A stretch of DNA of 64,000 nucleotides, from the sequence record PX092659.1; one strand, written 5' to 3'. A model generated the notes under the pieces. It did no database searches. It saw nothing but the letters and a program-made list of their open reading frames with translations, and was not told the origin of the DNA. Positions 9,483 to 61,573 of this stretch are shown here, piece by piece. A program made the translations under genes and the position numbers. Source of the DNA: a phage. How positions within the stretch are numbered: position 1 is the stretch's first letter; every line of letters begins with the position of its first letter.

Positions 9483-9511
9483 ATTATAGCAAGTATTTAA
9501 GCATTTAGCAA
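9483..9511 (-). promoter_or_regulatory. sigma70-type early promoter (minus): TTGCTA-N17-TATAAT
   Basis: Reverse complement reads TTGCTA, 17-nt spacer, TATAAT; member of the repeated cassette. Confidence 0.65.
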
Positions 9512-9575
9512 CTACAATTTTAACTAACTTTGCTCACCCTCGCCATAACTTTCTATCCCTCAACTGAATGATAAT

Positions 9576-9604
9576 AGTATATACCTAAGCGGCGAAAATG
9601 TCAA
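9576..9604 (-). promoter_or_regulatory. second promoter class (minus): TTGACATTTTCGC-type
   Basis: Reverse complement reads TTGACA ttttcgccgcttaggta TATACT; shares a 13-nt identity TTGACATTTTCGC with the promoter at 39953-39981. Confidence 0.55.
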
Positions 9605-9654
9605 TAACCACTTTATAATTCCGATATGGTAGATGGGTAGCAAAGGGTTATGTA

Positions 9655-10626
9655 TTAATCATATACTCGCTCTACTATGCACGGGATTACACCACCAGCA
9701 CGAATCACTCGAATCTGGCAACCGATCTCTAGATCGAGAGAGTTAATATAATCAACGTTATTAAGAGTCGCTTTAACAATTGTAGCATCATCAATAATTA
9801 CCGGTTCGAAATAACCAACTGGAGTTACTTTACCAGAAGCCCCTACCTGCCACTCAACTTTAGTAAGAGTTGTAATCTCGCCTTCTTCATCCTCTTTAAC
9901 AGCAAATGCTCCACGAGGGAATTTATTAGTCCAGCCTTCACGGAAGAATTTGTTGTTGTCATTAATACGAACAACTTTACCGTCCGTCGGAATCCATTTA
10001 AAGAAGGAACGCACATTAACAACTGTTAAGAAGTTCTCATTCTCTAGCCAAAGCATATCTTTTAAGTATGCTTCTGTAATACCTACAGATTCAGCAGAAC
10101 ACTGGATACCATAAGCAACAAAGATTAAACCACCTTCCCCGATACGTTGTACGAAATCATCACTATCTTTGAGGTTAATAGCACCAGAGGCAAAGTTACG
10201 TTTATTTTCTACTTCTTTTGTAATTAGAACTTCACCAGTGATTTGAGTTGGTACTTTTTGGGAAATCTTTTTAGGGATATTCAGCAGTCTTACGTTGCTT
10301 GTGACATCATTCCCTAGAATACCATTACCACGAGTTAGTGCTTGAACAAATTCGCCATTAATATATAGTAGAGAAATCGCACAACCATCTAACTTGTCAG
10401 TTTCTACCTGACCTAATGGGTTAAATGGGGGTTTATCTCCACGATTATAATAAACTTTCTGTAAAGAATACATACGATACAGATGTGGAATATCGCCCTT
10501 AGGCCCGATCTCTTCTTCTAACGGAAATCTTTTAATCAGACGATCATATTCTTCGTCAGAGATTAAAGACATTCCCTGGTAATATGCTTCTTGACAGCGT
10601 TTAATAAATTCTTTTACATTGGTCAT
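9655..10626 (-). CDS. ligA: NAD-dependent DNA ligase, N-terminal adenylation/OB subunit
   Basis: 323 aa; adenylation lysine motif KLDG (ETDKLDGCAISL); separated from the C-terminal half by a 199-bp promoter-containing spacer. Confidence 0.75.
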   Translation of the reverse strand: MTNVKEFIKRCQEAYYQGMSLISDEEYDRLIKRFPLEEEIGPKGDIPHLYRMYSLQKVYYNRGDKPPFNPLGQVETDKLDGCAISLLYINGEFVQALTRGNGILGNDVTSNVRLLNIPKKISQKVPTQITGEVLITKEVENKRNFASGAINLKDSDDFVQRIGEGGLIFVAYGIQCSAESVGITEAYLKDMLWLENENFLTVVNVRSFFKWIPTDGKVVRINDNNKFFREGWTNKFPRGAFAVKEDEEGEITTLTKVEWQVGASGKVTPVGYFEPVIIDDATIVKATLNNVDYINSLDLEIGCQIRVIRAGGVIPCIVERVYD

Positions 10627-10657
10627 TTATTTATATCTCTCATTAATTTATATAAAT

Positions 10658-10686
10658 ATTATATAACAAAACTGAGTTGAAAGCAA
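10658..10686 (-). promoter_or_regulatory. sigma70-type early promoter (minus): TTGCTT-N17-TATAAT
   Basis: Reverse complement gives TTGCTT, 17 nt, TATAAT upstream of ligA. Confidence 0.65.
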
Positions 10687-10692
10687 ATACAT

Positions 10693-11004
10693 TTATTCTT
10701 TTTCCGCCAGGCGTTTAGCTTCTTTTTCTACTTCTAATAAAACCTCACTATTAGATAATATTTTAGTAAATGCCTTAAATAAATGAGATGTTGTTTCTAG
10801 AGTGTATGGCATACTGAATCCACTTTTTGTTGGAAACCATTCACCTTCTATATCTTGGAGCCAGTACCTAATTCCTAAGTATAGATTCCCCCTAAACTCA
10901 GATACAGTTAGCCTAACCTGTTGGCCATCTTCTCTTTCCCAGATAACTATGGACTGATCATCTACATGTCCAACATAATCCTGATTTACATTATCTCCCG
11001 ACAT
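10693..11004 (-). CDS. hypothetical protein
   Basis: 103-aa track ORF, co-oriented; overlaps downstream gene start. Confidence 0.5.
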   Translation of the reverse strand: MSGDNVNQDYVGHVDDQSIVIWEREDGQQVRLTVSEFRGNLYLGIRYWLQDIEGEWFPTKSGFSMPYTLETTSHLFKAFTKILSNSEVLLEVEKEAKRLAEKE

Positions 11005-11651
11005 TTTATTGCTCCCTGACTTAGGAGATATTCCTCTGCCTCCTCTGGTTGAATATTAAAAAACTCAGTAGAACCATCAAATATTGATTCTGTAAATATC
11101 TGTGTAGTACTAAAAAATCTATGAGCTTTATTTTCTAGATTATACGCTGACTCATCATAAGAGTATACTCCATATATACTCAAGTCCTCCAGATTAGAAT
11201 CTTTTTTGATCTCTAAAAGTCTTCTATCTGGACTTTTAGATGTTCCTATTTTTGTGCCTAGTTGTGGGCTATAAAATACGTATAAATAGCTAGTAGATTT
11301 ACACATAGGGCATGATCTACCAGCATTTTTAACTTTATCTACACTACTAGTCCACGTGTGTCCGTGGGTGCACTCAAATATTGCCGGACTTTGGGAATTT
11401 ATATAGGAGGATATAAGTTTTATACCTTTAGTACTTAACTGTTGATTTATGACCTCTACAGTTAGTTTAGCTTTGCCACTACAATAAGGGCAGCCACTAC
11501 CTTTCCGTATATTACTTAAATATCCCTTCCATTGATGACCTTTTGAACACTCAAATATAGCGGGTGTTCTTATATTAGCCCATTCACTCACTATATGAAA
11601 ACCTAGTGGCTCTAACTCTTTATTTATTTGCTCTTCTGTTAATTTTTTCAC
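10986..11651 (-). CDS. Zn-ribbon repeat protein with C-terminal T5orf172-like (GIY-YIG superfamily) domain
   Basis: 221 aa; repeated CxxC zinc-ribbon units (GSGCPYCSGK, GRSCPMCKS) then YVFYSPQLGTKIGTSKSPDRRLLEIK; paralog of 22845-23708. Confidence 0.55.
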   Translation of the reverse strand: MKKLTEEQINKELEPLGFHIVSEWANIRTPAIFECSKGHQWKGYLSNIRKGSGCPYCSGKAKLTVEVINQQLSTKGIKLISSYINSQSPAIFECTHGHTWTSSVDKVKNAGRSCPMCKSTSYLYVFYSPQLGTKIGTSKSPDRRLLEIKKDSNLEDLSIYGVYSYDESAYNLENKAHRFFSTTQIFTESIFDGSTEFFNIQPEEAEEYLLSQGAIKCREIM

Positions 11652-11663
11652 TATAATTTACAT

Positions 11664-11689
11664 ATGACAAAGGAGAGCCGAAGCTCTCC
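11664..11689 (-). terminator. rho-independent terminator (minus strand, possibly bidirectional)
   Basis: Stem GGAGAGC / GCTCTCC with CGAA loop; T-run on both sides. Confidence 0.6.
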
Positions 11690-11698
11690 TTTTCTTTA

Positions 11699-11989
11699 TT
11701 ATTTTTTGCCTACTGGCGTAGCTCTATCAAGTTCACTAGACAATGAAGTGACACGTTTCACCTTATTTACAGGAATAAATCGGAAGCTATCATTAGTGCG
11801 ACTAAACACTAGAATTTCGTCATCTTTTGGTTGACGGATACGCTCCTGAGCAAAACGTTTACTTAGGTACTTATCAGTAAAATCCATAGTGCCCTGTAAA
11901 TAGGTAGTGCCCTTTTGACGGAGCTTTTCGTAATGAAGATAAAATTCATTATGAGCTTCACATGCGGAGATAATTTCTTGCTTAGTCAT
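11699..11989 (-). CDS. hypothetical protein
   Basis: 96-aa track ORF, co-oriented. Confidence 0.5.
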   Translation of the reverse strand: MTKQEIISACEAHNEFYLHYEKLRQKGTTYLQGTMDFTDKYLSKRFAQERIRQPKDDEILVFSRTNDSFRFIPVNKVKRVTSLSSELDRATPVGKK

Positions 11990-12415: not shown

Positions 12416-12472
12416 ATTTTATATTTCCTTAATTAAGAATTAAACAGAATAGTTCTTTCAAACTATGAGAAT

Positions 12473-12501
12473 ATTATATCAAGAATTATAGGATTAAGCA
12501 A
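12473..12501 (-). promoter_or_regulatory. sigma70-type early promoter (minus): TTGCTT-N17-TATAAT
   Basis: Reverse complement gives TTGCTT, 17 nt, TATAAT. Confidence 0.6.
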
Positions 12502-12518
12502 CTGAAATTTTTAAGTAG

Positions 12519-13467: not shown

Positions 13468-13498
13468 ATTTAAACTCCTCTCTCAAATTTATGAATCT

Positions 13499-13527
13499 AT
13501 TATACAGAAAATTTTTCCTGAAAGCAA
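13499..13527 (-). promoter_or_regulatory. sigma70-type early promoter (minus): TTGCTT-N17-TATAAT
   Basis: Reverse complement gives TTGCTT, 17 nt, TATAAT, then cataaatttgagagagg before the ATG. Confidence 0.65.
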
Positions 13528-13535
13528 ATAAATTT

Positions 13536-13877
13536 TTACGATTCCTTGAGTAAAGAAGAAAGTTCAGCATATACTTTATCTAACTCAAACCCTATGCGAA
13601 GAGATACGTTAGTCCTCCGTTGTTTAAGTAACCACTCGGATATGTTAGGGATACCAGCTAATCTATGTGGTACCACCCTACATAGCTTTTCCGAAGTGTC
13701 ATAAACAGGAACTTTACGTTCTTTTACTGGGAACTTCCTTGTTTCCCATTTCTTATTCTTCACTGTCATATCTCTCCGAGGGATTAAATTCACCAAACAG
13801 CTCTTTAACTCCCCTAAGGTATAGCTGATGGGCTTCTTCCGGGGTATCTCGTCTACCAAAAATATGTTGCTTTCCAT
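13536..13877 (-). CDS. hypothetical protein (uncertain; overlaps HNH gene by about 125 nt)
   Basis: 113-aa track ORF in a different frame from the 3' end of 13753-14283; may start later or be spurious. Confidence 0.3.
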   Translation of the reverse strand: MESNIFLVDEIPRKKPISYTLGELKSCLVNLIPRRDMTVKNKKWETRKFPVKERKVPVYDTSEKLCRVVPHRLAGIPNISEWLLKQRRTNVSLRIGFELDKVYAELSSLLKES

Positions 13878-14283
13878 CGCAGTAAGCGTAGGCCATATAC
13901 CTATTACCTCGTTTTACAACTCCAGTGAATCCGGTAGAATTAGTAGAACACTTCTTATTCTTCCCATTTTCGGAATAGGTAGCCTTACGTAAATTATCCC
14001 ACAAGTTGTTTAAACTATCGCCGTCTTTATGGTCAATAGTTTTACCCCCAGGATCTTCACCTGTCTTTATAAACCAGATTATTCTATGGGCTAAGTAAGC
14101 TGTCCGCTCCCCATTTATCGTAAACTCTAGCTGTCTCCCAGTTTTCATTTTGGAGCCCGCTACCTTTCCCTTCCTTGGGCCAGATAACCAAATTAAGTCC
14201 CCAGTACTTTCGTCATACCTAAGCTTTTCTAGGATAAATGCCATAGGAGGCATTGGTTTATGCATTTTCATTAGTTGCTCCAA
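13753..14283 (-). CDS. HNH homing endonuclease (paralog family)
   Basis: 176 aa; AHRIIWFIKTGEDPGGKTIDHKDGDSLNNLWDNL HNH-like motif. Confidence 0.65.
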   Translation of the reverse strand: MEQLMKMHKPMPPMAFILEKLRYDESTGDLIWLSGPRKGKVAGSKMKTGRQLEFTINGERTAYLAHRIIWFIKTGEDPGGKTIDHKDGDSLNNLWDNLRKATYSENGKNKKCSTNSTGFTGVVKRGNRYMAYAYCDGKQHIFGRRDTPEEAHQLYLRGVKELFGEFNPSERYDSEE

Positions 14284-17044: not shown

Positions 17045-17643
17045 AACAATACTCCTGTGTTGGAAATGGAATAAGTTTTCTTTAGGACTATTCAGAAAGA
17101 ATAGAACAACTGTTACTGTCAATTTCTCAACAAATTAATTGCAAATACTGAAGTGGGGTGGCAACTTCCACTTTCACGCTGCGCTGCTGCCTCATTATAC
17201 CGCACAAATCCTTGAGGATGGCCGCTAAGCCAGATTTGCTCACCTAATGCTTCATATACTAGCTCATACTAGATGCAATATAACTTACAGAATCACGTCT
17301 CGGTAGTTTTTCACTCCTCCCATCTCACTTCACAACCACCTCATACTAGGTTGCTTCGAGGCCTTACCAGGGTTCCTATGGGACGCAGATCGCTAAGTAT
17401 TCTATTAACTATTTGCTTAAAAACTAACACGTAACAGTTAAAACAACCCTTAATGGGGCAGCCTAACTGTTCCGTATCGCGGATTGTAAACAAGAAAAAA
17501 CTTTTTCGTAAAGCTCTAGCAACGTACCTTATGCAGCTATTTACGGGTCATCGATTCCTCTCGCCGTAAATCTCTTGTCAGCTTCACTAAGAAAAATTAG
17601 TAAAAGATCAATTTTTACTAATGTCTCTCAATTCAATATAAAT

Positions 17644-17672
17644 ATTATAGCAAGATTTTGAGCATCATGCAA
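17644..17672 (-). promoter_or_regulatory. sigma70-type early promoter (minus): TTGCAT-N17-TATAAT
   Basis: Reverse complement gives TTGCAT, 17 nt, TATAAT; would start a roughly 600-nt untranslated leader before CDS 14258-17044. Confidence 0.55.
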
Positions 17673-17707
17673 GTAGATTTTTAAAGAGAATGCTATCAGT
17701 GTCTTTG

Positions 17708-20932: not shown

Positions 20933-20960
20933 AACTTTCTCCTCTCAAATTTATAAATCT

Positions 20961-20989
20961 ATTATATATAAATTTTTGGCTGAAAGCAA
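20961..20989 (-). promoter_or_regulatory. sigma70-type early promoter (minus): TTGCTT-N17-TATAAT
   Basis: Reverse complement gives TTGCTT, 17 nt, TATAAT. Confidence 0.65.
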
Positions 20990-21031
20990 ATAAAATAAAA
21001 GCCAGGTCGACTAGCAACCCGGCTGATTAGC

Positions 21032-23708: not shown

Positions 23709-23736
23709 TACTCTTCTCCATAGAATTTTTACATTT

Positions 23737-23765
23737 ATTATACTAAACATTATCCACCATGTCAA
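23737..23765 (-). promoter_or_regulatory. sigma70 promoter (minus): TTGACA-N17-TATAAT, leftward arm of divergent region
   Basis: Reverse complement gives TTGACA tggtggataatgtttag TATAAT. Confidence 0.6.
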
Positions 23766-23902
23766 TTAAAATTTTCTTTCGCCATCTAATACTGTAATAT
23801 TTCGCGTATAAATAGTTGAGTATCTAGTATCACACATCCCACGTTAAAAGCAAGCAAATTTTTTATTTAAATGCAATATCATAGGCTTATTTAAAATTGT
23901 AG

Positions 23903-23931
23903 TTGCTTTTTACTGTATATATTGGTATAAT
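23903..23931 (+). promoter_or_regulatory. sigma70-type early promoter (plus): TTGCTT-N17-TATAAT, rightward arm of divergent region
   Basis: TTGCTT, 17 nt, TATAAT; upstream of phoH. Confidence 0.6.
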
Positions 23932-24004
23932 ATATTTGTAAGTTGATAAACAAGATCTTTTTGTTGATCCTCTGTTAGCGAAGTACACTATAGGAGTGTT
24001 ATTT

Positions 24005-24980: not shown

Positions 24981-25122
24981 GCTAAAAAGCTAGACTGGTA
25001 ATATACAGGGCCTGGGTATGAAAATACTCGGGCCTTTTCTATCAGAAAATTTTATTTGCCTAATGACCAATAATAATGTAGAATATTCCTTAAATCCTGA
25101 TAACTATAAAAAGGAAAGCCAA

Positions 25123-27462: not shown

Positions 27463-27489
27463 GGAGATCTTCGGGTCTCCTTTTTCTTT
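27463..27489 (+). terminator. rho-independent terminator
   Basis: GGAGATC ttcg GGTCTCC followed by TTTTTCTTT, downstream of nrdA. Confidence 0.65.
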
Positions 27490-27499
27490 GAAATTTTAC

Positions 27500-27528
27500 T
27501 TGCTAATCGCTACCAGATTTGCTATAAT
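27500..27528 (+). promoter_or_regulatory. sigma70-type early promoter: TTGCTA-N17-TATAAT
   Basis: Cassette match upstream of the HNH gene at 27555. Confidence 0.6.
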
Positions 27529-27554
27529 ATCTCCATTAGTTAAGGAGATTAGTT

Positions 27555-30598: not shown

Positions 30599-30622
30599 AT
30601 AGCCCTTCGGGGCTATTATATT
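30599..30622 (+). terminator. rho-independent terminator
   Basis: AGCCC ttcg GGGCT followed by an A/T-rich run (attatattt), after thyA. Confidence 0.5.
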
Positions 30623-30632
30623 TAAATTTCAT

Positions 30633-30661
30633 TTGCTTATTTAGTGAAATTTAAATATAAT
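30633..30661 (+). promoter_or_regulatory. sigma70-type early promoter: TTGCTT-N17-TATAAT
   Basis: Cassette match. Confidence 0.6.
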
Positions 30662-30686
30662 ATATTTTATAAATTGGAGGTATACA

Positions 30687-31444: not shown

Positions 31445-31464
31445 TAAATAAATTAAAAATTCTC

Positions 31465-31493
31465 TTGCTTAAAGCCCTCTAATTTAGTATAAT
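31465..31493 (+). promoter_or_regulatory. sigma70-type early promoter: TTGCTT-N17-TATAAT
   Basis: Cassette match. Confidence 0.6.
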
Positions 31494-31520
31494 ATTCGTA
31501 TTGAAAGTGAGGAGGGCTTT

Positions 31521-31799: not shown

Positions 31800-31815
31800 T
31801 TTTTAAAAAATTCAT

Positions 31816-31844
31816 TTGCTAAACGCTTCAAATTCTTGTATAAT
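31816..31844 (+). promoter_or_regulatory. sigma70-type early promoter: TTGCTA-N17-TATAAT
   Basis: Consensus-like cassette copy (aaaaattcaTTTGCTAaacgcttcaaattcttgTATAATatacttcataaattga). Confidence 0.7.
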
Positions 31845-31882
31845 ATACTTCATAAATTGATAAACAAAAAGGAAAACAAATA

Positions 31883-32704: not shown

Positions 32705-33406
32705 ATGAAAGTAAAACCATTTGGTATGCTAGATATTGAATCTCTAGGAACTCCAGGAGATTGTGGTACTACTCATATCGCAATGCCTTCTTTCGCTTTT
32801 GTGGCTATGCATGGGATTGACAAAGACCCTGACTTAGTATTTGTTACTTTGGATGTGCAGGATCAGCTTAATTCTGGTGCCAAAGTTACAGCATCTACTC
32901 TAGCATTCTGGATGGATCAAGCTAAAAATAGCCCGTCTGCTATTCACATTATGGAAGCTATGAAGGAACGTAATCCAAAACTGATTGCCTTCCAGAATGG
33001 TAAACATCATTGCACTAATAAATTAGGCTCAAACTATGCTGCCTTCTCTATGGCACAAAATATTATGGAGTTGGCTCTAGGCGAAAATGCTTTGTATTAT
33101 GGCAATGGCCCAGAGTTTGATATGACTATCTACTCTGCAAACACGTTCCATGCTGGAACCAATGAAGAGGTAGTTCCGTGGAAATTCTGGAATTTGGGTA
33201 ATGTTCGATCTCTTCGTAATCTCTGGATGCAAGCTGGATACAGTTATAAGGCTCTAGAGACCGAAGCTATTAGCTGGGCAATAGCTAAAATGGAGAAGAT
33301 GGACACCATTCGTTATGGGATCTATCCGGTTAAGCACGACCCAGCATTCGATGCCCTAGTTGAGAGCTATTGTGTTGCAGCTATGATCGAAAAAATGAAA
33401 ATTTGA
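32705..33406 (+). CDS. DnaQ-like 3'-5' exonuclease (DEDDh), DexA-like
   Basis: 233 aa; exo motif I LDIESLG; C-terminal H-x4-D motif (KHDPAFDAL). Confidence 0.5.
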   Translation: MKVKPFGMLDIESLGTPGDCGTTHIAMPSFAFVAMHGIDKDPDLVFVTLDVQDQLNSGAKVTASTLAFWMDQAKNSPSAIHIMEAMKERNPKLIAFQNGKHHCTNKLGSNYAAFSMAQNIMELALGENALYYGNGPEFDMTIYSANTFHAGTNEEVVPWKFWNLGNVRSLRNLWMQAGYSYKALETEAISWAIAKMEKMDTIRYGIYPVKHDPAFDALVESYCVAAMIEKMKI

Positions 33407-33407
33407 T

Positions 33408-33436
33408 TTGCTTCCGGCTCCAAAATTCTGTATAAT
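33408..33436 (+). promoter_or_regulatory. sigma70-type early promoter: TTGCTT-N17-TATAAT
   Basis: Cassette match. Confidence 0.6.
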
Positions 33437-33476
33437 ATATTCATAAATTTGAGAAAACAATAAAAGGAAAACAAAT

Positions 33477-34351: not shown

Positions 34352-34734
34352 TAATTTAAAAGCTAGTAAATCGGTAGACGAAAGCCCAAGCATCTTACCT
34401 CGCAGCAGCGGTTGAAATACGAGGTTAAATAAGACCGCTGACCATACTATAAAGTATAATCTATTGGAGATTATGTTTATTACACCAGCCTCTTAAGCTG
34501 ACACGTAAGAACAAAGCGTCGTTGATATTACCGACACAACTTCAAAGATCAACATTTAAGTATGAAAGCTGAAAAGTTTAAAGAACTCAAACTTCTAAAC
34601 TTCTAAAGCTAAAAGATGCAAAGTATTCGTTGATGATTCAAACCCTAGATCAAAGGTACATGGCTCGTAAGATATGGCCTGTGGCGCCTCTAGGCTGTTT
34701 ATCGGTTTACTAGTTTCACAATTTAAAAATGTAT

Positions 34735-34763
34735 TTGCTAATTTACTAAGTTATCTGTATAAT
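34735..34763 (+). promoter_or_regulatory. sigma70-type early promoter: TTGCTA-N17-TATAAT
   Basis: Cassette match. Confidence 0.6.
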
Positions 34764-34793
34764 ATATTTTTAAATTGATGAAACGAGGCTATT

Positions 34794-35116: not shown

Positions 35117-35566
35117 ATGAAGGCAGCTTTGCTTTTAGTAGCTGCCCTTACCTTCAGCTTTAGTAGTCAGGCATCGCACGATGCAAAAGAAATAGATTGC
35201 ATTGCTAAAAATATCTATTTCGAAAGTCGTGGTGAGGGCATAAAGGGAATGACGGCGATTGCACATGTTACTAAAAACCGTGTAAACTCCGGTAAATTCC
35301 CAGATTCCTACTGTAAAGTAGTATATCAGTCTAACCAGTTCTCTTGGGTATCTAAGAAACCAAAAGTTGATAAAACTGATGAGGCTTGGCAAACCGCTAA
35401 GAATTTAGCTAGAGTGATATACTACGTTGATTTACCACAAGATCCTACATATGGAGCACTATACTTCCATAGTGGTAAAGATAAACCTTACTGGACAAAG
35501 AAGTTTAAGAAAACAACTAAGATTAAGGGACATACGTTTTATAAACCTGTTGTCACTAAAACTTAA
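35117..35566 (+). CDS. secreted cell-wall hydrolase (SleB-like)
   Basis: Start moved to ATG 35117 so that the signal peptide MKAALLLVAALTFSFSSQA is N-terminal; hydrolase-like region NIYFESRGEGIKGMTAIAHVTKNR. Confidence 0.55.
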   Translation: MKAALLLVAALTFSFSSQASHDAKEIDCIAKNIYFESRGEGIKGMTAIAHVTKNRVNSGKFPDSYCKVVYQSNQFSWVSKKPKVDKTDEAWQTAKNLARVIYYVDLPQDPTYGALYFHSGKDKPYWTKKFKKTTKIKGHTFYKPVVTKT

Positions 35567-35576
35567 AAAAATTTAC

Positions 35577-35605
35577 TTGCTTAGCTACTTAAATTTCTGT
35601 ATAAT
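35577..35605 (+). promoter_or_regulatory. sigma70-type early promoter: TTGCTT-N17-TATAAT
   Basis: Cassette match. Confidence 0.6.
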
Positions 35606-35636
35606 ACTTTCATAAATTAATGAGAGGAAGCGAAAT

Positions 35637-35807: not shown

Positions 35808-36265
35808 TGGGTGAAAATATTCTAATGACCCTTCGTGGACTGCTTAGTCTAGCACGTACTCACGGTGATAAGGAACGGGCACTTAATCTTCAGACCATGA
35901 TTGGTGATCTGCAACGTATTGATAAAGACATTGTTACTCGAACCGAGTTCGTAGCCTATCTGAAAGCTCAGATTAAGGCTCTAGAAAATGCAAAACAACG
36001 CGCTATTAAAGTTGGTACGGAAGTTCCTACCGATGTAGACTATGAGCAACTGCTTTATTCCATGCTGCAAGAGTATCAGCCAAGTCAACTTACTGAAACT
36101 GAAATTCGTGAGTATTTTGCAGAACTGGTTAAATTAAACCCAGGTATTACCAAAGCTCTATTAATGAAAACCATTAAGGCAGAATTTCCTGGACGTTATG
36201 ACGGTAAAACAACTGCTTTGATTGCTAGTGAATTTTTTAAAAATTCATTTGCTAAATGCTTATAA
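35807..36265 (+). CDS. hypothetical protein
   Basis: 152-aa track ORF. Confidence 0.5.
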   Translation: MGENILMTLRGLLSLARTHGDKERALNLQTMIGDLQRIDKDIVTRTEFVAYLKAQIKALENAKQRAIKVGTEVPTDVDYEQLLYSMLQEYQPSQLTETEIREYFAELVKLNPGITKALLMKTIKAEFPGRYDGKTTALIASEFFKNSFAKCL

Positions 36266-36277
36266 ATTCTGTATAAT
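36249..36277 (+). promoter_or_regulatory. sigma70-type early promoter: TTGCTA-N17-TATAAT, reads into an 810-nt ORF-free region
   Basis: Cassette match; no ORF of 60 aa or more and no convincing RBS-led small ORF until tRNA-Arg at 37090. Confidence 0.6.
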
Positions 36278-37046
36278 ATATTCATAAATTAGGGAACAGC
36301 GAGCCGATTACGCTGAACTTGTCTTAATGTAAGATGCGTCGAGCACTAAGATTCGTTGAATAGAGTCGGTGGGTTAGTTGTAAAACTAGTACACAGGGGG
36401 CGGCAATCCCGGTTAGTGGCTAGAACGTGTAAAATGAGGCGTCTGAAACCTCTCCCCTAAACTCTTCTCTAATTTATAAATAGTGGGGTGTGGAAATCAC
36501 TTATGTAGTAGCACTGCCGTCCTAGTATAATTGGTATTATCAAGCCGTAACTGGTGGAAGATGTAGGTTCGAATCTTACGGTCGGTAAGAACTGGATAAC
36601 TGATGCTTTTAACGTAAAAGCTTCCGAGGTTAGTTGCGCACTGCCTAAACCACGCGGTAGTTGGTTCCAGGCTAACCAACCAGTCTGCTGAATAGTTTTA
36701 TTACGATTTAACTATGTCCAGACTAAAGAAGAACTTTAGAAGGTATTCTAGGATAGTGAAGTTCTTTCTCCATATCGGAGTAGTTTTTCAAGCTATCCAC
36801 AAAGTGGGAAATGCTGACATGAGAGATGTCACTAATGGTGCACAATAGCACAGGTAATTCGCGATAACTCCTGTTGAGTAGCAGCAAAAGGCGGGAAGTC
36901 ATGACCCCAAGCCTAACCGAGTCCTCAATATACCGCAGGACATAACCACTAAGTCACCCTGACTTAAACTGGAAAATAATAGACGTTACTGTATTTTGTC
37001 TTGAAATACTTAATGAGTGAGACTTATGACTCTCCCGGTATCGTCT

Positions 37047-39981: not shown

Positions 39982-40098
39982 AGGGGTCTTTAAAAATTGC
40001 CCCTGAATTTTTAGTGGGGTCACAAATTTTGGTCCTCACCATTTATCTGCTATCCTTAAGTGCCCTATGATTTTCCTCTAAAAAGTTAAAAAATTTGA

Positions 40099-40127
40099 TT
40101 GCTTGAATGCTAAATTCTCTGTATAAT
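40099..40127 (+). promoter_or_regulatory. sigma70-type early promoter: TTGCTT-N17-TATAAT
   Basis: Cassette match. Confidence 0.6.
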
Positions 40128-40157
40128 ATATCTATAAATTTGAAAGAGGAACCAAAT

Positions 40158-40676
40158 ATGAATGTTGATGAGCTAACACAGCACCTCTTATCTAGAGGAT
40201 TTGATACAGATAAATATCATTGCTGGTTAAGTCCGGAAGGATGGCTAACAGTCCCGTTGTATGACTTCTCTGGGATGTTGAGGGGCTATCAAACTTATAA
40301 TCCTTCTGCTCCAAAAGGTCATGGTAAGTGCCCCTTTGAAGCTAAATACTTTACTTATTCTACTACCCAGTGTGTATGGGGACTAGAAACTCTCAATGGA
40401 GATGAAAAAGTAGTATTGATTGCTGAATCTGTATTTAAGGCAGTTGCGTTACATAATGCTGGTTATCCAGCCCTAGCAATGTTGGGTTCTTCTCCAGGAA
40501 AAGCGTTATTAAAGCAACTGAAATTACTACCTTTTAAATTGGTAGCTGTCGGAGATAATGATCCTGCGGGTGAAAAATTTGCTAGAAAATTAAACGGCTT
40601 TGTTTCTCCCGTAGATGTGGATGAGATGTCTACCGAAAACTTGAAAAATTTTCTTGCTATGAAGCTAAATTTCTAA
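40158..40676 (+). CDS. small TOPRIM-domain-like protein
   Basis: ATG 40158 after GAAAGAGGAAC RBS (track ORF extends to 40107); TOPRIM-like Glu (LIAESVFK) and DxD (AVGDNDPAG). Confidence 0.45.
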   Translation: MNVDELTQHLLSRGFDTDKYHCWLSPEGWLTVPLYDFSGMLRGYQTYNPSAPKGHGKCPFEAKYFTYSTTQCVWGLETLNGDEKVVLIAESVFKAVALHNAGYPALAMLGSSPGKALLKQLKLLPFKLVAVGDNDPAGEKFARKLNGFVSPVDVDEMSTENLKNFLAMKLNF

Positions 40677-40682
40677 TATAAT
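40654..40682 (+). promoter_or_regulatory. sigma70-type early promoter: TTGCTA-N17-TATAAT (inside 3' end of previous ORF)
   Basis: Cassette match; would drive the tRNA-Ser/tRNA-Met pair. Confidence 0.55.
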
Positions 40683-40697
40683 ATATCTTATAAATTC

Positions 40698-42037: not shown

Positions 42038-42067
42038 CTCCTCCAAACAGAATTTTTAAAAATGTAC

Positions 42068-42097
42068 TTGCCTTTTGCTTTAAATTTCTGATATAAT
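42068..42097 (+). promoter_or_regulatory. sigma70-type promoter (TTGCCT-N18-TATAAT)
   Basis: Cassette-like with 18-nt spacer. Confidence 0.45.
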
Positions 42098-42127
42098 AGT
42101 TATATAAATTGATGAAGGAGTTAACGA

Positions 42128-42403: not shown

Positions 42404-42439
42404 CTAATACAGCACTGAGCAAGTTCTTTAAAATTTGAC

Positions 42440-42468
42440 TTGCTCAGTGCTATAAAACTTGATATAAT
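42440..42468 (+). promoter_or_regulatory. sigma70-type early promoter: TTGCTC-N17-TATAAT
   Basis: Cassette match; drives the RNA-only unit 42496-42938. Confidence 0.55.
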
Positions 42469-42495
42469 AGTTATCTAATTTGGAAAGTTCTTTTT

Positions 42496-42955: not shown

Positions 42956-43228
42956 ATGCATCCTGAAAACTTCTTTATTTACTGCGCGGATAAGTCGCTG
43001 AAACGTAGAATTAACAAAGTCTATCATTATCGTGCTAGTCAACAGCCTTATGTATATGCTTTTGACGGTGATCACATTCCACTAGAACAATTATCTTGTG
43101 ATTACATGATATTGAAGAACTTTGACGAGACGAAGATCTCAAGCGTTCATAATCGACAGAATCCCTTAACGTGGAAATATAAGAAGAAAAAGAAAGGCAT
43201 CAAATTCTTAAAAAATGTAGTTGCTTAG
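42956..43228 (+). CDS. hypothetical protein
   Basis: ATG 42956 after GAAGGAG (track ORF starts at TTG 42941). Confidence 0.45.
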   Translation: MHPENFFIYCADKSLKRRINKVYHYRASQQPYVYAFDGDHIPLEQLSCDYMILKNFDETKISSVHNRQNPLTWKYKKKKKGIKFLKNVVA

Positions 43229-43249
43229 TTTCTAAAAGTTCTGTATAAT
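43221..43249 (+). promoter_or_regulatory. sigma70-type early promoter: TTGCTT-N17-TATAAT (within 3' end of previous ORF)
   Basis: Cassette match. Confidence 0.55.
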
Positions 43250-43297
43250 AATTACATAAATTGAACTGGAGAAGCAACATGACAGAACAAGATAAAC

Positions 43298-44462: not shown

Positions 44463-44855
44463 TAAAATTTCAGTGCAGAACACGGAGCTAGCAATTCGGA
44501 AGTGCTGACTCATGATAAGCTGCCTATGTACTTGCAAAGCGGTCGTGTCCAAGACTCGGACTCTTGCACTGAAAACAATCAAACATTCTAGCGTGGTTGA
44601 TGGGGAAACCAGCTTGGCTAGGGCAGAAGCTCGTTCGATTCGAGTGAAAGAATGGTTCTCGTAAGTCCGCACAAGTGATAGCAGGTTCGAGTCCTGTCTA
44701 GAATGATACTATAAAGTTTACTTATTGAGTAGGTTCCGATAGATCGGCGGGTCTATTCTGGCAGTTAAGAGAGGTCTCGCAAACTTCTTTGTCAGCCGTG
44801 GGGTTGGTAGCCTCCAGGTGGCCTACACAATAAGTAAATTTATTAAAAATTCATT

Positions 44856-44884
44856 TGCTATTTCGCTTAATTCTCGGTATAATA
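44856..44884 (+). promoter_or_regulatory. sigma70-type early promoter: TTGCTA-N17-TATAAT
   Basis: Cassette match (coordinates here may be off by 1 nt). Confidence 0.55.
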
Positions 44885-44915
44885 TATCTTATAAAGTGTT
44901 GAGAAGGAAAGCAAA

Positions 44916-45550: not shown

Positions 45551-45568
45551 ATTTCAAGAAAAACGCAG

Positions 45569-45597
45569 TTGCTTAATGCGTAATTTCTTGTTACAAT
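45569..45597 (+). promoter_or_regulatory. sigma70-type early promoter: TTGCTT-N17-TACAAT
   Basis: Cassette variant; followed by about 235 nt of ORF-free leader before tRNA-Ala. Confidence 0.55.
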
Positions 45598-45835
45598 ATT
45601 TATATAAATTGATGAGGAGAAATCCTCGTCATAGTTCACTAAGGTATTAGCTCGACCTAGGACTGGCTGCCAAAAAGCACGATCCCTACGATTCGGGAGA
45701 AGTTCTAGATTAGTCCACTAGATTCAGCGGCAACTGAATAGTGTATCGGGTTTGCGAGATGACGCGGTTCCTTCCGCTCGAAGCGAAGGTGCTGTAGTTA
45801 CGCCGAGCTAATAGCCTTAGTAAACTAAAGAATTT

Positions 45836-48518: not shown

Positions 48519-48533
48519 AATTTAAAAATTCAT

Positions 48534-48562
48534 TTGCTTTCTCTCTTATTTATTGTTATAAT
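48534..48562 (+). promoter_or_regulatory. sigma70-type early promoter: TTGCTT-N17-TATAAT
   Basis: Cassette match. Confidence 0.6.
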
Positions 48563-48592
48563 ATTTATATAAATTAATGAGAGGGAAACCAA

Positions 48593-48883: not shown

Positions 48884-48898
48884 TGTAAATATTTTAAT

Positions 48899-48975: not shown

Positions 48976-49071
48976 AATTTAGGAATTAAGACTATGCGTC
49001 CAGGAAAGTTTAAAAAAGCTAGTTGGTCTAAAGAGTATAAAGAATACTTACTTAGTCTAATAAAACATAAT

Positions 49072-50404: not shown

Positions 50405-50421
50405 ATTCTGAAATAATTCAT

Positions 50422-50450
50422 TTGCTAAACCTCTCTTTTCTTGCTATAAT
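50422..50450 (+). promoter_or_regulatory. sigma70-type early promoter: TTGCTA-N17-TATAAT
   Basis: Cassette match. Confidence 0.6.
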
Positions 50451-50480
50451 ATATTTATAAATTGATGAGAGAGGTTTGAA

Positions 50481-52531: not shown

Positions 52532-52546
52532 ATAATAAAATTTTAG

Positions 52547-52575
52547 TTGCTTAGATGCCCAAACTTTTGTATAAT
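52547..52575 (+). promoter_or_regulatory. sigma70-type early promoter: TTGCTT-N17-TATAAT
   Basis: Cassette match. Confidence 0.6.
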
Positions 52576-52606
52576 ATGTTTATAGATTGAGGCAAGAGGA
52601 TTAAAT

Positions 52607-55290: not shown

Positions 55291-55890
55291 ATGACTAATA
55301 AAAAAGAAGAAAAGACTAACCTGTTTCACTCCATTCGCCAATCTAATGAGTATACCTTTTTCTTTGATGAAGAATTAGGCCCGCCGGATGAATACCGTGA
55401 TTTATCAATGGTACTTATGCAGGCAAATGAGGACGACGAAATTAATCTGATGATTAATGGCCCTGGTGGTTATGTTGATACTGCTGCACAGTTATCTAAC
55501 TTAATTGCTAATTGCCGTGGAACAGTTATAGGACACCTGATTGGTCCTAGTGCTTCTGCTTACTGCACAATTTTCCTATCCTGTCATGGATGGGTAGTAC
55601 ATCCACATGCTACGCTAATGGGACACACGTTCTCTGGCGGATTCTGTGAGAAGGGTCAAGAAATCAAGAAAGCCTATGAATCTTACAACAAGTTCGTAGA
55701 AGATATGATGCTAGATGTCTACTATCCGTTCTTCTCAATAGACGAAATCGACGAGATGGTAAAAGACAACAAAAATATCTATCTAGATAGCAAAGAAATC
55801 CATAAGCGTATTGAAATCTTGGCAAAATATCGATCTGAGCAATATAATAAAGCCCAGTTACCTCAATCCGAGGAGCATAACGAAGAGTAA
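55291..55890 (+). CDS. ClpP-like serine protease (S14-like)
   Basis: 199 aa; ClpP-like regions INLMINGPGGYV, GPSASAYCTIFL and conserved His (HPHATLMGH). Confidence 0.5.
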   Translation: MTNKKEEKTNLFHSIRQSNEYTFFFDEELGPPDEYRDLSMVLMQANEDDEINLMINGPGGYVDTAAQLSNLIANCRGTVIGHLIGPSASAYCTIFLSCHGWVVHPHATLMGHTFSGGFCEKGQEIKKAYESYNKFVEDMMLDVYYPFFSIDEIDEMVKDNKNIYLDSKEIHKRIEILAKYRSEQYNKAQLPQSEEHNEE

Positions 55891-57607: not shown

Positions 57608-57620
57608 GATAAAAAAGTAG

Positions 57621-57649
57621 TTGACTTTTAGCCCTAGTTATTATATAAT
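57621..57649 (+). promoter_or_regulatory. sigma70-type promoter: TTGACT-N17-TATAAT
   Basis: TTGACT, 17 nt, TATAAT then catAAATTagt cassette tail. Confidence 0.6.
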
Positions 57650-57682
57650 ATATACATAAATTAGTTAAGAGAGGTATATATT

Positions 57683-58403: not shown

Positions 58404-58436
58404 AAGCCTGATCTTAGCGGATCAGGCTTTTATTTT
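58404..58436 (+). terminator. rho-independent terminator
   Basis: AGCCTGATC ttagcg GATCAGGCT followed by TTTATTTT. Confidence 0.75.
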
Positions 58437-58438
58437 AC

Positions 58439-58467
58439 TTGCTTTTTGCTAAAAATTTTGGTATAAT
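58439..58467 (+). promoter_or_regulatory. sigma70-type early promoter: TTGCTT-N17-TATAAT
   Basis: Cassette match directly after the terminator. Confidence 0.6.
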
Positions 58468-58557
58468 ACTTATATAAATTGATGAGAAGGCTATCTTCGT
58501 ATGGGTTCTAGTCATACTAAGGGCTATCTACGCACTACAAGAAATAGGAGTATTCCA

Positions 58558-58935
58558 ATGAACTATGCATATCTTATTATTAATAATAACGTAGTTTGTG
58601 GTACTCGCGCTGTTGAGATGGGTATTACAGAAGAAAAGTATAAGTCACTTCCAGAAAAGGAACAACAATATTATGTTGAAGAAGCTGCTTGGGAGTATGC
58701 TGAGGTTTATCCCGAAGAACGTGAAGATCGTCTTACTCTTGTTGTGTCTCTGGGTTTGGTTGGCTGTGATACCGAAGTTGATACAGACCTAGAGACTTTA
58801 GAGGAGTGGGAAGAGTTAGATATTTCAGCTAAAAACTCCTTAATCCGTGAAGCCTTTTGGGAAGCTGTAGATTGCCATGTAGTATTTGAGCCTAATGATG
58901 AAGAGGCTGAAAAACATACTAACCATTGGAGATAA
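58558..58935 (+). CDS. hypothetical acidic protein
   Basis: ATG 58558 (MNYAYLIINN) after AGGAG; track ORF extends to 58501. Confidence 0.45.
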   Translation: MNYAYLIINNNVVCGTRAVEMGITEEKYKSLPEKEQQYYVEEAAWEYAEVYPEEREDRLTLVVSLGLVGCDTEVDTDLETLEEWEELDISAKNSLIREAFWEAVDCHVVFEPNDEEAEKHTNHWR

Positions 58936-58939
58936 TTAA

Positions 58940-59185
58940 ATGTTAGCGGAACAAGCAAAACGTTTAGCTAGAATAAATAGAGCCGCGTCCCTTAAGAGCC
59001 GAAAGAAAACGTATAGATGGGTTAAGCGAAGGATAGTATCTTCTGTCGAGATTGGAGGTTCTTTTGTACAGCTTAATCGTGACGAAATTAGTTATGAAGC
59101 TATAAAAGCCCTCTATAAAGATGGTTATACTCTAAAACTATCAAATAATTATGGTACAACTATTTTAAATGTTATTTGGGAATAA
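58940..59185 (+). CDS. hypothetical protein
   Basis: 81-aa track ORF. Confidence 0.45.
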   Translation: MLAEQAKRLARINRAASLKSRKKTYRWVKRRIVSSVEIGGSFVQLNRDEISYEAIKALYKDGYTLKLSNNYGTTILNVIWE

Positions 59186-59187: not shown

Positions 59188-60051
59188 ATGAAAAAAGAAT
59201 TTAATGTGCATAAAACACTAGTAGTACCTGATGATGTTAACTTATTCTTTGTTGGTGATATTCATGGATGCAACGATTTACTAGAAGATGCATTACAATT
59301 AGCTGGCTATAACGGCAAGAAAGACTGCGTTGTATGCGTTGGGGATTTAATTGATCGAGGCACGCAGAACCTACAAGTTTTAGCCAAATTCCTGTATAAT
59401 CCACGCTTTATCAGTGTCCGTGGTAATCATGACCAATTTATGATTGTGGGAGATTGGGCTAACTGGATGTATAACGGTGGTATGTGGGCCATGAATGAAC
59501 TAGATGCAGATACCATTAAAAATATTGCTGAAGACATGGCTGAAAAAATGCCAGTATTTCTGACTGTATTGCATCGTGGTAAAAAGTATGGTGTTGTTCA
59601 TGGTGGTGTACCTTTTACGTACAAAGAATGCGGTAACGAAGTAGAAACCCCAGTATGGGATAGCCTTATTGCACAAGTAGAAGCAGCTAAGGAAGATCCA
59701 CATGACCATCCTGGATACCATGTTGAGCCATACTTATGGGATCGAGATGTAATCCAAGAAATAGGTTTTCACTTAGCTAAAAATGGTGAAGAACACTCAC
59801 ATTTCCAGCGTTATGCAGGGTTTAAAGAGAAATACATGGTAGAAGTACCTCCGGTTAATGGAGTAGACTTTGTATTTCATGGGCATACCGGAGTACCTTA
59901 CCCGATTTTATACCAGAACCGTGTTTACCTAGATACCGGCGGTGTTTTCAACGGGCAGTTGACGGTTGCGCAGGTTAACGATGAAACTGGCAAAATCACC
60001 ACATTTACCACAGACAAAAATGATAGCTGCGGTGTACAGAGGATCCTTTAA
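59188..60051 (+). CDS. Ser/Thr protein phosphatase-like metallophosphoesterase
   Basis: ATG 59188 (MKKEFNVHK); calcineurin-like motifs GDIHGC, GDLIDRG, GNHD, HGG. Confidence 0.7.
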   Translation: MKKEFNVHKTLVVPDDVNLFFVGDIHGCNDLLEDALQLAGYNGKKDCVVCVGDLIDRGTQNLQVLAKFLYNPRFISVRGNHDQFMIVGDWANWMYNGGMWAMNELDADTIKNIAEDMAEKMPVFLTVLHRGKKYGVVHGGVPFTYKECGNEVETPVWDSLIAQVEAAKEDPHDHPGYHVEPYLWDRDVIQEIGFHLAKNGEEHSHFQRYAGFKEKYMVEVPPVNGVDFVFHGHTGVPYPILYQNRVYLDTGGVFNGQLTVAQVNDETGKITTFTTDKNDSCGVQRIL

Positions 60052-60338
60052 TGAATGATAGAATGAAAGAAGTACAAGAAGAATTACGAGCAATGCGTAT
60101 TGATGCCCTTCGTTGGAGGGCATTAGTTAATGCTTTCGTCAAAGGAGACACCGGAGTAATATATTCTGGAATAGCAGTCAATTTTTGTTTTAATTCTCCT
60201 GCTGAAATAGAGATAGAAACAAGGCTTACTACCTACCTTAATGAGGTAGACCTTAAGGAAGGAGAGACTCCCGAGGAGTTTAAAACTAGAGTATTAACTA
60301 CCTGGGTTGATAACTTAATACAAAAAAGGAGTAAGTGA
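60051..60338 (+). CDS. hypothetical protein
   Basis: 95-aa track ORF, start overlapping previous stop. Confidence 0.45.
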   Translation: MNDRMKEVQEELRAMRIDALRWRALVNAFVKGDTGVIYSGIAVNFCFNSPAEIEIETRLTTYLNEVDLKEGETPEEFKTRVLTTWVDNLIQKRSK

Positions 60339-60928
60339 TGAAGGTTAAATTCTGGTCAGACTTGCACTTAGACCACCCTGGAGCACTACGTTTCCGTCCG
60401 TGGTTTAAGAACATGAAAGAGCACGATGAGTATATTCTAGATACTTTGTCCAAGCATATTGGTAAACGAACAAAACTTATTTTGCTAGGAGATATTGCAG
60501 TAGGTCGTGAAGGTCTGGACAAATTAAAGTCGGTTATCCACAATGTCCCTAATCAACTCATTATGGGTAATCATGATGCGGAGCGTCAAGGACTGAGTAT
60601 TAGGGACTTAGCGGAAGTTTATGATGATATTCAGGCTCTAGGTAAACAGACTGGAGGTGGCAAAAAGTTTTGGCTATCTCACTGCCCTTTGCATCCCAAT
60701 GAACTTCGTGGTAAACTAAATATTCACGGACACGTACATACTACTTCTTTACGTGATCCACGTTATATTAATGTCTCATTTGAAATGAGTAAAATTCCAA
60801 TTCCGCTAGAGGATATTGTATCTGGTAAGTTTACTAGCTATGATAGGGTAGTTAATTGTACTACCGGCGAGGTATTACAAATAGGAGAAGACGTAGCTGC
60901 TGTATTACGTGGTGATATAAATGTCTAA
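60335..60928 (+). CDS. metallophosphoesterase (calcineurin-like), second copy
   Basis: 197 aa; LLGDIAVGR, GNHD and HGHVH motifs. Confidence 0.65.
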   Translation: MMKVKFWSDLHLDHPGALRFRPWFKNMKEHDEYILDTLSKHIGKRTKLILLGDIAVGREGLDKLKSVIHNVPNQLIMGNHDAERQGLSIRDLAEVYDDIQALGKQTGGGKKFWLSHCPLHPNELRGKLNIHGHVHTTSLRDPRYINVSFEMSKIPIPLEDIVSGKFTSYDRVVNCTTGEVLQIGEDVAAVLRGDINV

Positions 60929-61036
60929 GTATATAGCTGAGGCTATTATTAAACGAATCATACAAGCGATAGCAATACTTATAATTATTTGTATTGCTAT
61001 TGGCACAGGATTAGGCATTTTAACTAAAAGTTTTAT

Positions 61037-61065
61037 TTGCTAAAATGCTTAAGTTTCTGTATAAT
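61037..61065 (+). promoter_or_regulatory. sigma70-type early promoter: TTGCTA-N17-TATAAT
   Basis: Cassette match. Confidence 0.6.
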
Positions 61066-61095
61066 TACTTTATAAATTGATGAGAAGGAATCAAA

Positions 61096-61527
61096 ATGAA
61101 CAAAGTTGATAAAGCTCTAGTTTTCGCAGCAGCAGATAAGTTTGAACAAGTTAAGGCAACTTTCCGAACCTTGTTCCAGTCTTACGTTCAGGATAAGTCT
61201 AATCCTATTTCTGAACGCTTGATGGTTTGGGAGTGTCATGCTTGCAATGCCCTGCTAATTGCTGATTACCGTAGTGATATAGATAAAGATCTTTGTGAAA
61301 TCCTTATCCCCGAGGAAGCAGAACGTTATCAGTTAATCTCTTTCCAAGATTTGGCGGAGCATATCATTCCTGATGATCTTTGGGACAAATATTACGGTGA
61401 TCCTGAAGATGAAGGAATGACTCCAGAAGCCTGTATTGAGCTGATCTGCAAAGATCATCCTGAAATTGCAGAGAAATTTGAAAAAGTTTTTGCTTCTGAG
61501 TTCTCCGGCGTTGTTAACGATTGGTAA
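61096..61527 (+). CDS. hypothetical protein
   Basis: 143-aa track ORF after GAGAAGGAATCAAA RBS. Confidence 0.5.
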   Translation: MNKVDKALVFAAADKFEQVKATFRTLFQSYVQDKSNPISERLMVWECHACNALLIADYRSDIDKDLCEILIPEEAERYQLISFQDLAEHIIPDDLWDKYYGDPEDEGMTPEACIELICKDHPEIAEKFEKVFASEFSGVVNDW

Positions 61528-61544
61528 GTAATTAAAAAATTCAG

Positions 61545-61573
61545 TTGCTTTAAGCCTTAAAATTCTGTATAAT
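61545..61573 (+). promoter_or_regulatory. sigma70-type early promoter: TTGCTT-N17-TATAAT
   Basis: Cassette match. Confidence 0.6.

Follow-up and report, generated by a model that had tools for sequence, protein, structure and literature searches.

A recurrent promoter cassette in phage sequence PX092659.1 and its likeness to the early promoters of phage T5

Gene layout and recurrence of the promoter motif

The stretch of DNA considered here comprises 64,000 nucleotides of a phage (sequence record PX092659.1; hereafter the window), in which a promoter motif of ~55 bp, the cassette, recurs on both strands. It generally consists of an A-tract, a -35 and a -10 hexamer, and a conserved downstream box, and the copies very probably represent promoters of the "early" class (class II), as known from T5-like phages, that are read by the sigma70 polymerase of the host. 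Judged by its sequence, the phage is T5-like (Tequintavirus), with 90-96% identity to T5 and its relatives. In megablast, window positions 9000-30000 and 30000-54000 matched several hundred T5-like phages from Salmonella and Escherichia at 92-97% identity (541-660 records per query), and positions 5438-64000 are collinear with phage T5 (AY543070) at 87-95% identity, interrupted by short indels (local blastn). The T5 counterpart runs from ~70.0 kb down to 14.2 kb, i.e., in reverse orientation, and this collinearity implies that the window spans the "early" region of T5. Up to ~23.8 kb the genes lie on the minus strand and include those for replication and nucleotide metabolism, followed by a plus-strand block; the sign of the GC skew switches at the same point as the gene orientation. 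The G+C content of the genome is ~39%, and 24 tRNA genes (37090-49147, plus strand) are interspersed with small open reading frames (ORFs) and six of the cassettes.

The motif was detected in the window by pattern searches that tolerated at most one mismatch. TTTGCTW-N17-TATAAT gave 25 matches against 0.81 expected (the largest number in a shuffled sequence was 3), and TATAAT-N6-ATAAATT gave 20 matches against 0.67 expected. A match to the first pattern at 46356-46385 was discarded as a false positive, since it lies within an ORF, reads TATACT, and has neither A-tract nor downstream box. A weight matrix covering the A-tract through the -10 element, from which the downstream box was left out, recovered 27 canonical copies at 30-50 bits, far above the maximum of 9.4 bits reached in twenty first-order Markov simulations, so that the motif can be regarded as real. 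Five variants were added, three with altered hexamers (+25056, +57621, and -23765) and two with an 18-bp spacer (+42068 and -4424), giving a total of 32 cassettes, namely 24 on the plus and 8 on the minus strand. Minus-strand copies extend no further than 23765 and plus-strand copies start no earlier than 23903, and every copy is co-oriented with the local genes. A preliminary description of the window had counted 23 plus-strand and 8 minus-strand copies; the minus count is reproduced here, while the plus count is higher by one. Its range of 9483-61573 coincides exactly with the outermost TTTGCTW-N17-TATAAT matches (9483-9512 on the minus and 61544-61573 on the plus strand), and the variant at 4382-4436 (-) falls outside of it.

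A generic scan of the window for the sigma70 consensus showed no enrichment (40 sites against 51.6 expected); the reason is the low score of TTGCTW against TTGACA, which makes such a scan unsuitable for this promoter class. Although that result and the low G+C content might suggest that the motif arose by chance or from the base composition of an A/T-rich genome, such an origin is practically out of the question in view of the match counts, the matrix scores, the shuffle controls, the strict co-orientation with genes, and the coincidence of the copies with annotated promoters.

Orthology with the promoters of phage T5

The T5 record AY543070 carries 75-bp "promoter" features, with which the window copies were compared by position. 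Thirty-one of the 32 copies map onto such a feature (16 of them onto a named promoter), the exception being 25044..25096 (+), and orthologous promoters of T5 and the window are 88-99% identical when 200-bp segments are compared. As far as sequence and position can tell, each copy has been inherited individually and is the ortholog of one annotated T5 promoter. The reading of the copies as sigma70-type promoters that head the transcription units is likewise supported. T5's own annotated promoters score alike with the matrix derived from the window; those that do not conform are of the TTGACA type (P12, P-K28b, and nrdD), P10a, and the pre-early P-H22.

The copies (Table 1) share both positions and architecture (A-tract, TTGCTW, 17-bp spacer, TATAAT, ATATT discriminator, and ATAAATT start) with the known T5 early promoters (P-N25, P-N26, P-K28a, P-H207, P-D/E33, and others), which reportedly go back to Gentz and Bujard in 1985. 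As the phage is a further isolate of the same genus, nothing of substance distinguishes the two sets apart from copy number and a few variants (for example, the DUF7167 insertion after 58427-58480), and the copy at 13486-13539 differs from P-N25 by a few substitutions. The match of 61025..61078 to P-F30 was made by coordinate arithmetic, with the -10 element at T5 16779-16784 and a P-F30 feature of 6 bp. The cassette at 25044..25096 (+) was assigned upstream of an 811-aa ORF (25018-27453) that corresponds to nrdA by synteny.

Table 1. Cassette copies in the window, with the T5 (AY543070) promoter assigned to each or its context
Position	Strand	Form	T5 counterpart or context	Anchor
4382..4436	-	variant, 18-bp spacer, TTGCTG, +1 box GTAAGTT	promoter 70987-71061, upstream of pol
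9470..9523	-	canonical	ortholog P-K28a	-9511
10645..10698	-	canonical	ortholog promoter 65284-65358 (ligA)
12460..12513	-	canonical, box ATAGTTT	ortholog P-N26	-12501
13486..13539	-	canonical, TTGCTTTCAGGAAAAATTTTCTGTATAATAGATTCATAAATTTGAGAGAGGAG	ortholog P-N25	-13527
17630..17684	-	TTGCAT, box TTGAATT, without called ORF start nearby	promoter 58999-59073
20948..21001	-	canonical, T-run GGCTTTTATTTTA in place of A-tract	promoter 55708-55782
23724..23777	-	variant TTGACA-N17-TATAAT, box AAAAATT	divergent region upstream of nrdD-like ORF; T5 comparison returned no match
23891..23944	+	canonical, box GTAAGTT	ortholog promoter 53638-53712
25044..25096	+	weak variant TTGCCT/TAGAAT	without promoter feature at orthologous T5 position
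27488..27541	+	canonical, box ATTAGTT, directly after terminator-like hairpin 27461-27482	promoter 50061-50135
30621..30675	+	canonical	ortholog promoter 46937-47011
31453..31508	+	diverged +1 box TGAAAGT	ortholog promoter 46337-46411
31804..31858	+	canonical	ortholog P-H207	+31816
33396..33449	+	canonical	ortholog promoter 44393-44467
34723..34776	+	canonical, box TTAAATT	ortholog promoter 43067-43141
35565..35618	+	canonical	ortholog P-D/E33	+35577
36237..36290	+	canonical, before non-coding RNA and tRNA-Arg, no ribosome-binding site	P16-17	+36249
40087..40140	+	canonical	ortholog P15a	+40099
40642..40696	+	canonical, ATAAATT ends 1 nt before tRNA-Ser (40698)	P15b	+40654
42056..42110	+	variant TTGCCT, 18-bp spacer, perfect box	ortholog P15c	+42068
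42428..42481	+	box CTAATTT, before tRNA-Tyr/Glu/Trp/Phe cluster	ortholog P14a	+42440
43209..43262	+	canonical	ortholog P14b	+43221
44843..44897	+	canonical, box ATAAAGT	ortholog P13a	+44855
45557..45610	+	TACAAT -10, before stable RNA and tRNA-Ala/Leu	ortholog P13b	+45569
48522..48575	+	canonical	ortholog P11	+48534
50410..50463	+	canonical	ortholog promoter 26722-26796
52535..52588	+	canonical, box ATAGATT	ortholog promoter 24443-24517
57609..57662	+	variant -35 TTGACT, perfect -10 and box	ortholog promoter 19368-19442
58427..58480	+	canonical, T-run in place of A-tract, then inserted DUF7167 ORF	promoter 18550-18624
61025..61078	+	canonical	P-F30	+61037
61533..61586	+	canonical, highest score 50.5 bits	ortholog promoter 16245-16319

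The plus block contains a single island of genes on the opposite strand (~38.3-39.9 kb; 38267-39901, minus strand). Ahead of it stands a promoter of another type than the cassette, TTGACA-17-TAAAGT at 39982-39954 (-), whose hexamers are those of T5 P12 at the syntenic position. A terminator-like hairpin lies by this island at 38170-38201. The tRNA content varies among relatives, and the tRNA-Val found beside P13b in T5 is absent from the window.

Anatomy, conservation, and neighbors of the cassettes

The numbering of the cassette follows the T5 promoter N25, in which TATAATAGATTCAT covers -12 to +2 (Klimuk et al., PMC7472727); ATAAATT hence occupies +1 to +7 and belongs to the initial transcribed sequence (ITS). 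The -35 hexamer TTGCTW (-35 to -30) is followed by a 17-bp A/T-rich spacer and the -10 hexamer TATAAT, and the columns of both hexamers are invariant or nearly so among the 27 canonical copies. Directly upstream of the -35 hexamer, a conserved run of 4-6 A followed by TT is found at ~-46 to -41, with A at columns -45 to -42 in 23-26 of these 27 copies. Its position fits the proximal subsite of the UP element, for which Estrem and colleagues reportedly gave the consensus AAAAAARNR at -46 to -38 in 1999. Unlike in a full UP element, the distal subsite is not evident in the cassettes, and in two copies (20989-21001 on the minus and 58427-58438 on the plus strand) the A-tract is replaced by the T-run GGCTTTTATTTTA, which resembles the U-tract of a preceding terminator. 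It looks as if terminator and promoter overlap at these two sites and the UP-like element is missing. The cassettes are not extended -10 promoters, as TG at -15/-14 is present in only 12 of the 32 copies; another common form is a CTG abutting TATAAT, which is one position out of register. The discriminator is A/T-rich (ATATTc) and 6 nt long in 25 of the 32 copies, and its ATATT is common to all known T5 early promoters (PMC7472727).

The ATAAATT box is perfect in 20 of the 32 copies, and at least five of its seven positions are matched in 31. When the copies are aligned on the best-matching offset, which somewhat inflates the frequencies, TAAATT (+2 to +7) is invariant in 24-27 of 28 per position (~95%) and the +1 position itself in 22 of 28. 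This hexamer also follows the T-A-n-n-n-T pattern of a -10 element within the first ~10 transcribed bases of the non-template strand, which is a resemblance of sequence only. From +1 to +20 the composition is 46% A, 23% G, 26% T, and 4.7% C (70% purine), and the consensus ATAAATTgAtGAGAGG, i.e., the ITS of N25, runs into GAGAGG (Shine-Dalgarno). In most copies with a called ORF the start codon lies 18-34 nt from +1 (median ~24-25), and owing to these short and uniform leaders, everything from the promoter through the leader to the ribosome-binding site is packed into ~75 bp. The preliminary description had placed the ribosome-binding site 15-25 nt after the cassette; such a site does follow, but that spacing was imprecise, since the Shine-Dalgarno sequence starts ~3-10 nt after ATAAATT.

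Orthologous cassettes were further scored element by element against T5, NBSal005, Seafire (Epseptimavirus), and a Klebsiella Sugarlandvirus. Compared with Seafire, whose overall identity to the window is 83%, the -35 hexamer is 97%, the -10 hexamer 100%, and the ITS box 99.3% identical, while the values are 90% for the A-tract, 87% for the discriminator, 82% for the upstream flank, and 79% for the spacer. The 10 nt that follow the ITS box are 94% identical and the coding sequence beyond 85%. The difference between the ITS box (99.3%) and the spacer (79%) points to purifying selection on the box about equal to that on the core hexamers. The earlier suggestion of selection on the flanks beyond sigma70 recognition is thereby supported, and the guess that a UP element or the ITS is responsible fits the published work on N25 (PMC7472727, PMC12464699).

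The same description had also regarded the copies as one reused cassette that provides dispersed repeats for recombination, and neither part of this is supported. Compared over 57 bp, paralogous cassettes have a mean identity of 63% (maximum 81%). The longest stretch that two of them share exactly measures 27 bp and occurs in two of the 351 pairs, the median being 9 bp. Between paralogs, the identity of the 17-bp spacers is 43%, compared with 79-94% between orthologs, which argues for old, independently inherited orthologs and against concerted evolution. The copies are held to a common consensus by function and have not been recently copied or homogenized.

Homologous recombination or modular shuffling between cassettes would have a precedent in the PeSL cassettes of T4-type phages, whose copies have been documented to recombine with one another (Arbiol et al. 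2010, PMC2839356). Like PeSLs, the window cassettes are many strong sigma70-like early promoters, some of which abut indel boundaries in a region rich in small non-essential genes, and they often appear to lie by terminators. Terminator-like sites are enriched in the window (34 against 12.8 expected), and some of the copies, not all, directly follow such a hairpin (27461-27482 before +27500; T-runs at -20989 and +58439). A total of 65 indel or replacement gaps relative to T5, NBSal005, and Seafire were evaluated, with a gap counted as near a cassette when its window end fell within -30 to +80. By this measure, 17 gaps end at a cassette in the window, in most cases on the downstream side of it, and some coincidence of breakpoints is expected because the intergenic regions are short and largely filled by cassettes. 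Not one of the 65 gaps connects two different cassettes, be it in the window or in the relative. Given this, the much lower similarity of the copies than in PeSLs, and the diverging spacers, a role of the cassettes as recombination repeats is highly improbable.

The variable segments themselves offer a different explanation, as most of those tested in the window encode HNH endonucleases. Among ten variable ORFs examined with Pfam, seven contain HNH_3, one T5orf172/MUG113, and one DUF7167, and one is without a match. The seven HNH_3 (PF13392) ORFs of ~130-190 aa (5283-5816, 7272-7853, and 13753-14283 on the minus strand; 27555-28070, 40882-41283, 53302-53799, and 61878-62414 on the plus strand) sit where T5, NBSal005, or Seafire has no such segment, a different one, or only a weak match, and a large part of the presence/absence variation is due to them. 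In appearance they resemble free-standing genes for homing endonucleases, such as the heg genes of T5. At the two junctions that were inspected, genes are inserted into the interval that extends from ~+10 of the leader to the start codon that follows. The idea of mobile cassettes was therefore rejected in favor of intergenic gene insertions, mostly of HNH endonucleases, beside conserved promoters.

Three further observations concern these segments. A 144-aa DUF7167 ORF (58501-58935, plus strand), which is absent from T5 and NBSal005, is inserted between ~+10 of the 58427-58480 leader and the next start codon and has thus captured the first position behind a strong promoter. A 221-aa ORF at 10986-11651 (-) combines DUF4379 zinc-finger, CapR, and MUG113/T5orf172 domains in a 779-bp segment that is missing from T5 and NBSal005, and may be another mobile nuclease-like gene. 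Inside the minus block, an antisense TTGCT-N19-TATAAT followed by a hairpin and T-run (GGAGAGCCGAAGCTCTCCTTTTCTTT) is found at 11628-11700 (+), which could be due to chance or represent a small antisense or bidirectional-terminator feature.

Early-class specificity and the role of the transcribed box

When T5 was scanned with the matrix, the early region (71 kb) gave 28 matches, compared with 0 for the pre-early region (10 kb) and 1 for the late region (30 kb). The single late-region match is the promoter of llp (T5 110349-110423), a lytic-conversion lipoprotein gene that we take to be expressed early, so that the cassette may predict early timing even for a gene located among late genes. The T5 late promoters P-G25 and P-J5 are without cassette features. 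Outside T5, the cassette including its box occurs at 26 sites in 50 kb of the Epseptimavirus Seafire and at 19 sites in 41 kb of the Klebsiella Sugarlandvirus (phage K7PH164C4). Several recognizable cassettes (e.g., AAAATTCAATTGCAG-N17-TATAATAATCTCATAAATTGAAAAGAGGAG) are also present in Vibrio phage Achelous, whose DNA polymerase is 57% identical; copies were noted there at 10259, 15980, and 24967. As the start box ATAAA(T/G)T can be recognized in such distant Demerecviridae of Vibrio and Klebsiella, the design appears to be ancient in the family.

By analogy with the T5 orthologs, for which both properties are taken from the literature, E. coli sigma70 holoenzyme would initiate transcription at the A of ATAAATT, with early timing. 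The A-tract would serve the alpha C-terminal domain in the manner of a proximal UP subsite, polymerase would be bound very tightly by the near-consensus core, and the conserved transcribed sequence would free the polymerase from this tightly bound promoter (escape). The class-specific discriminator and the +1 box would in addition label the promoter as "early" for the temporal program of the phage. What the present analysis contributes to this model are the motif statistics, the orthology with T5, the purifying selection at particular positions, the specificity for the early class in T5, and the conservation in several genera. The literature on T5 N25 supplies the start site and the influence of the ITS on escape.

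N25 is described as an escape-limited promoter whose transcript has no C before +30, and replacement of +3 to +20 of its ITS (N25anti) lowered productive RNA ~10-fold (PMC12464699). According to a 2024 review (PMC10911233), Kammerer et al. (1986) reported ITS effects on promoter strength of more than 10-fold, and Hsu et al. (2006) linked the purine content of the ITS to productive yield. The window ITS resembles the N25 ITS studied by Kammerer et al. (1986) and the Hsu laboratory (PMC12464699) in being C-poor and purine-rich, properties that are tied to escape. In contrast to this published work, which concerns one promoter, the ITS core is here common to ~30 promoters, is 99% conserved between orthologs, and is also found in other genera of the Demerecviridae.

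Alternatively, the downstream box might act in the RNA, as a 5' leader that boosts translation initiation (for instance, as an A/U-rich S1-binding or standby site) or stabilizes the mRNA 5' end. The short, uniform leaders with start codons at 18-34 nt and the continuation of the box into GAGAGG are consistent with this. However, four cassettes drive tRNAs or stable RNAs without a ribosome-binding site, and a perfect ATAAATT is kept in three of them (+36249, +40654, and +45569), an observation that favors a function in transcription over one in translation. At +40654, the box makes up essentially the whole 8-nt leader before tRNA-Ser. Moreover, the N25 ITS effect appears in purified transcription without ribosomes (PMC12464699). 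A translational function of the box was accordingly held unlikely, and the same applies to an RNA-level action in general.

Several points weigh against the interpretation as early promoters with an escape-promoting ITS. For this particular phage the case is built from sequence, and the T5 orthologs have been mapped experimentally only in part, with primer-extension products for 11 of 19 tested promoters (PMC7472727). A literature search found no genome-wide map of transcription start sites of a T5-like phage, and the T5-like genome papers in which statements of a promoter consensus were sought yielded nothing decisive. The conservation of the A-tract between orthologs is modestly above background (90% versus 82%); its UP role is deduced from position and composition, and two copies carry a terminator T-run instead. 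Finally, a generic rule of purine-rich ITSs by itself leaves the ~95% invariance of TAAATT (+2 to +7) unexplained, and a further sequence-specific function is likely.

A less likely possibility is that the box at +1 to +7 serves as a regulatory signal read by its exact sequence, instead of or besides acting as a generic escape ITS. It could form part of a class-specific operator or discriminator-ITS code for a phage shut-off factor (e.g., gpT5.026 or D5), or TAAATT could be a -10-like element to which sigma70 re-binds, causing a promoter-proximal pause. The invariance of TAAATT relative to +1, the 99% conservation between orthologs, and the confinement of the cassette to the early class in T5 speak for such a signal, and the T-A-n-n-n-T pattern speaks for its pausing form. 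A pause element is found at much the same place in lambda PR', which is a lead rather than a test. With regard to a shut-off factor, gpT5.026 weakens the contacts of the polymerase with -5 to +2, and the early-specific ATATT discriminator was proposed by Klimuk et al. as the basis of its differential action on early and late transcription (PMC7472727). On the other hand, the in vitro effects of gpT5.026 are at most two-fold (PMC7472727), and the literature search yielded no account of a sigma-dependent pause, which would fall at ~+16 to +18, for native N25. Moreover, the ITS is already known from experiment to influence escape, and this may be sufficient. To our knowledge, there is no sequence-specific binder of the box. 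More specifically, TAAATT and the ATATT discriminator might together constitute a cis-code for the early class across the Demerecviridae, read by a phage shut-off factor or through sigma70 pausing. This proposal is rather doubtful; it is grounded in a box that is 99% conserved, absent from the pre-early and true late promoters of T5, and present in phages from Escherichia to Vibrio hosts.

The early promoters themselves are long-established T5 biology; the observation made in the window is confirmed, and its interpretation as promoters with UP-like and ITS elements is essentially right. Expression vectors make use of the T5/N25 promoter, and the biochemistry of promoter escape has been studied on it for decades; a scan of raw sequence has here rediscovered the classic family of strong promoters from which it comes, which is mainly of value as a sanity check. 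New in quantitative terms are the conservation of the ITS box to about the same degree as the -35 and -10 hexamers and its persistence at tRNA promoters, as well as the specificity of the cassette for the early class in T5 and its persistence across genera with different hosts. These additions sharpen, without answering, the question of how T5 switches between temporal classes using only the host's sigma70 polymerase, which is open according to Klimuk et al. (PMC7472727).

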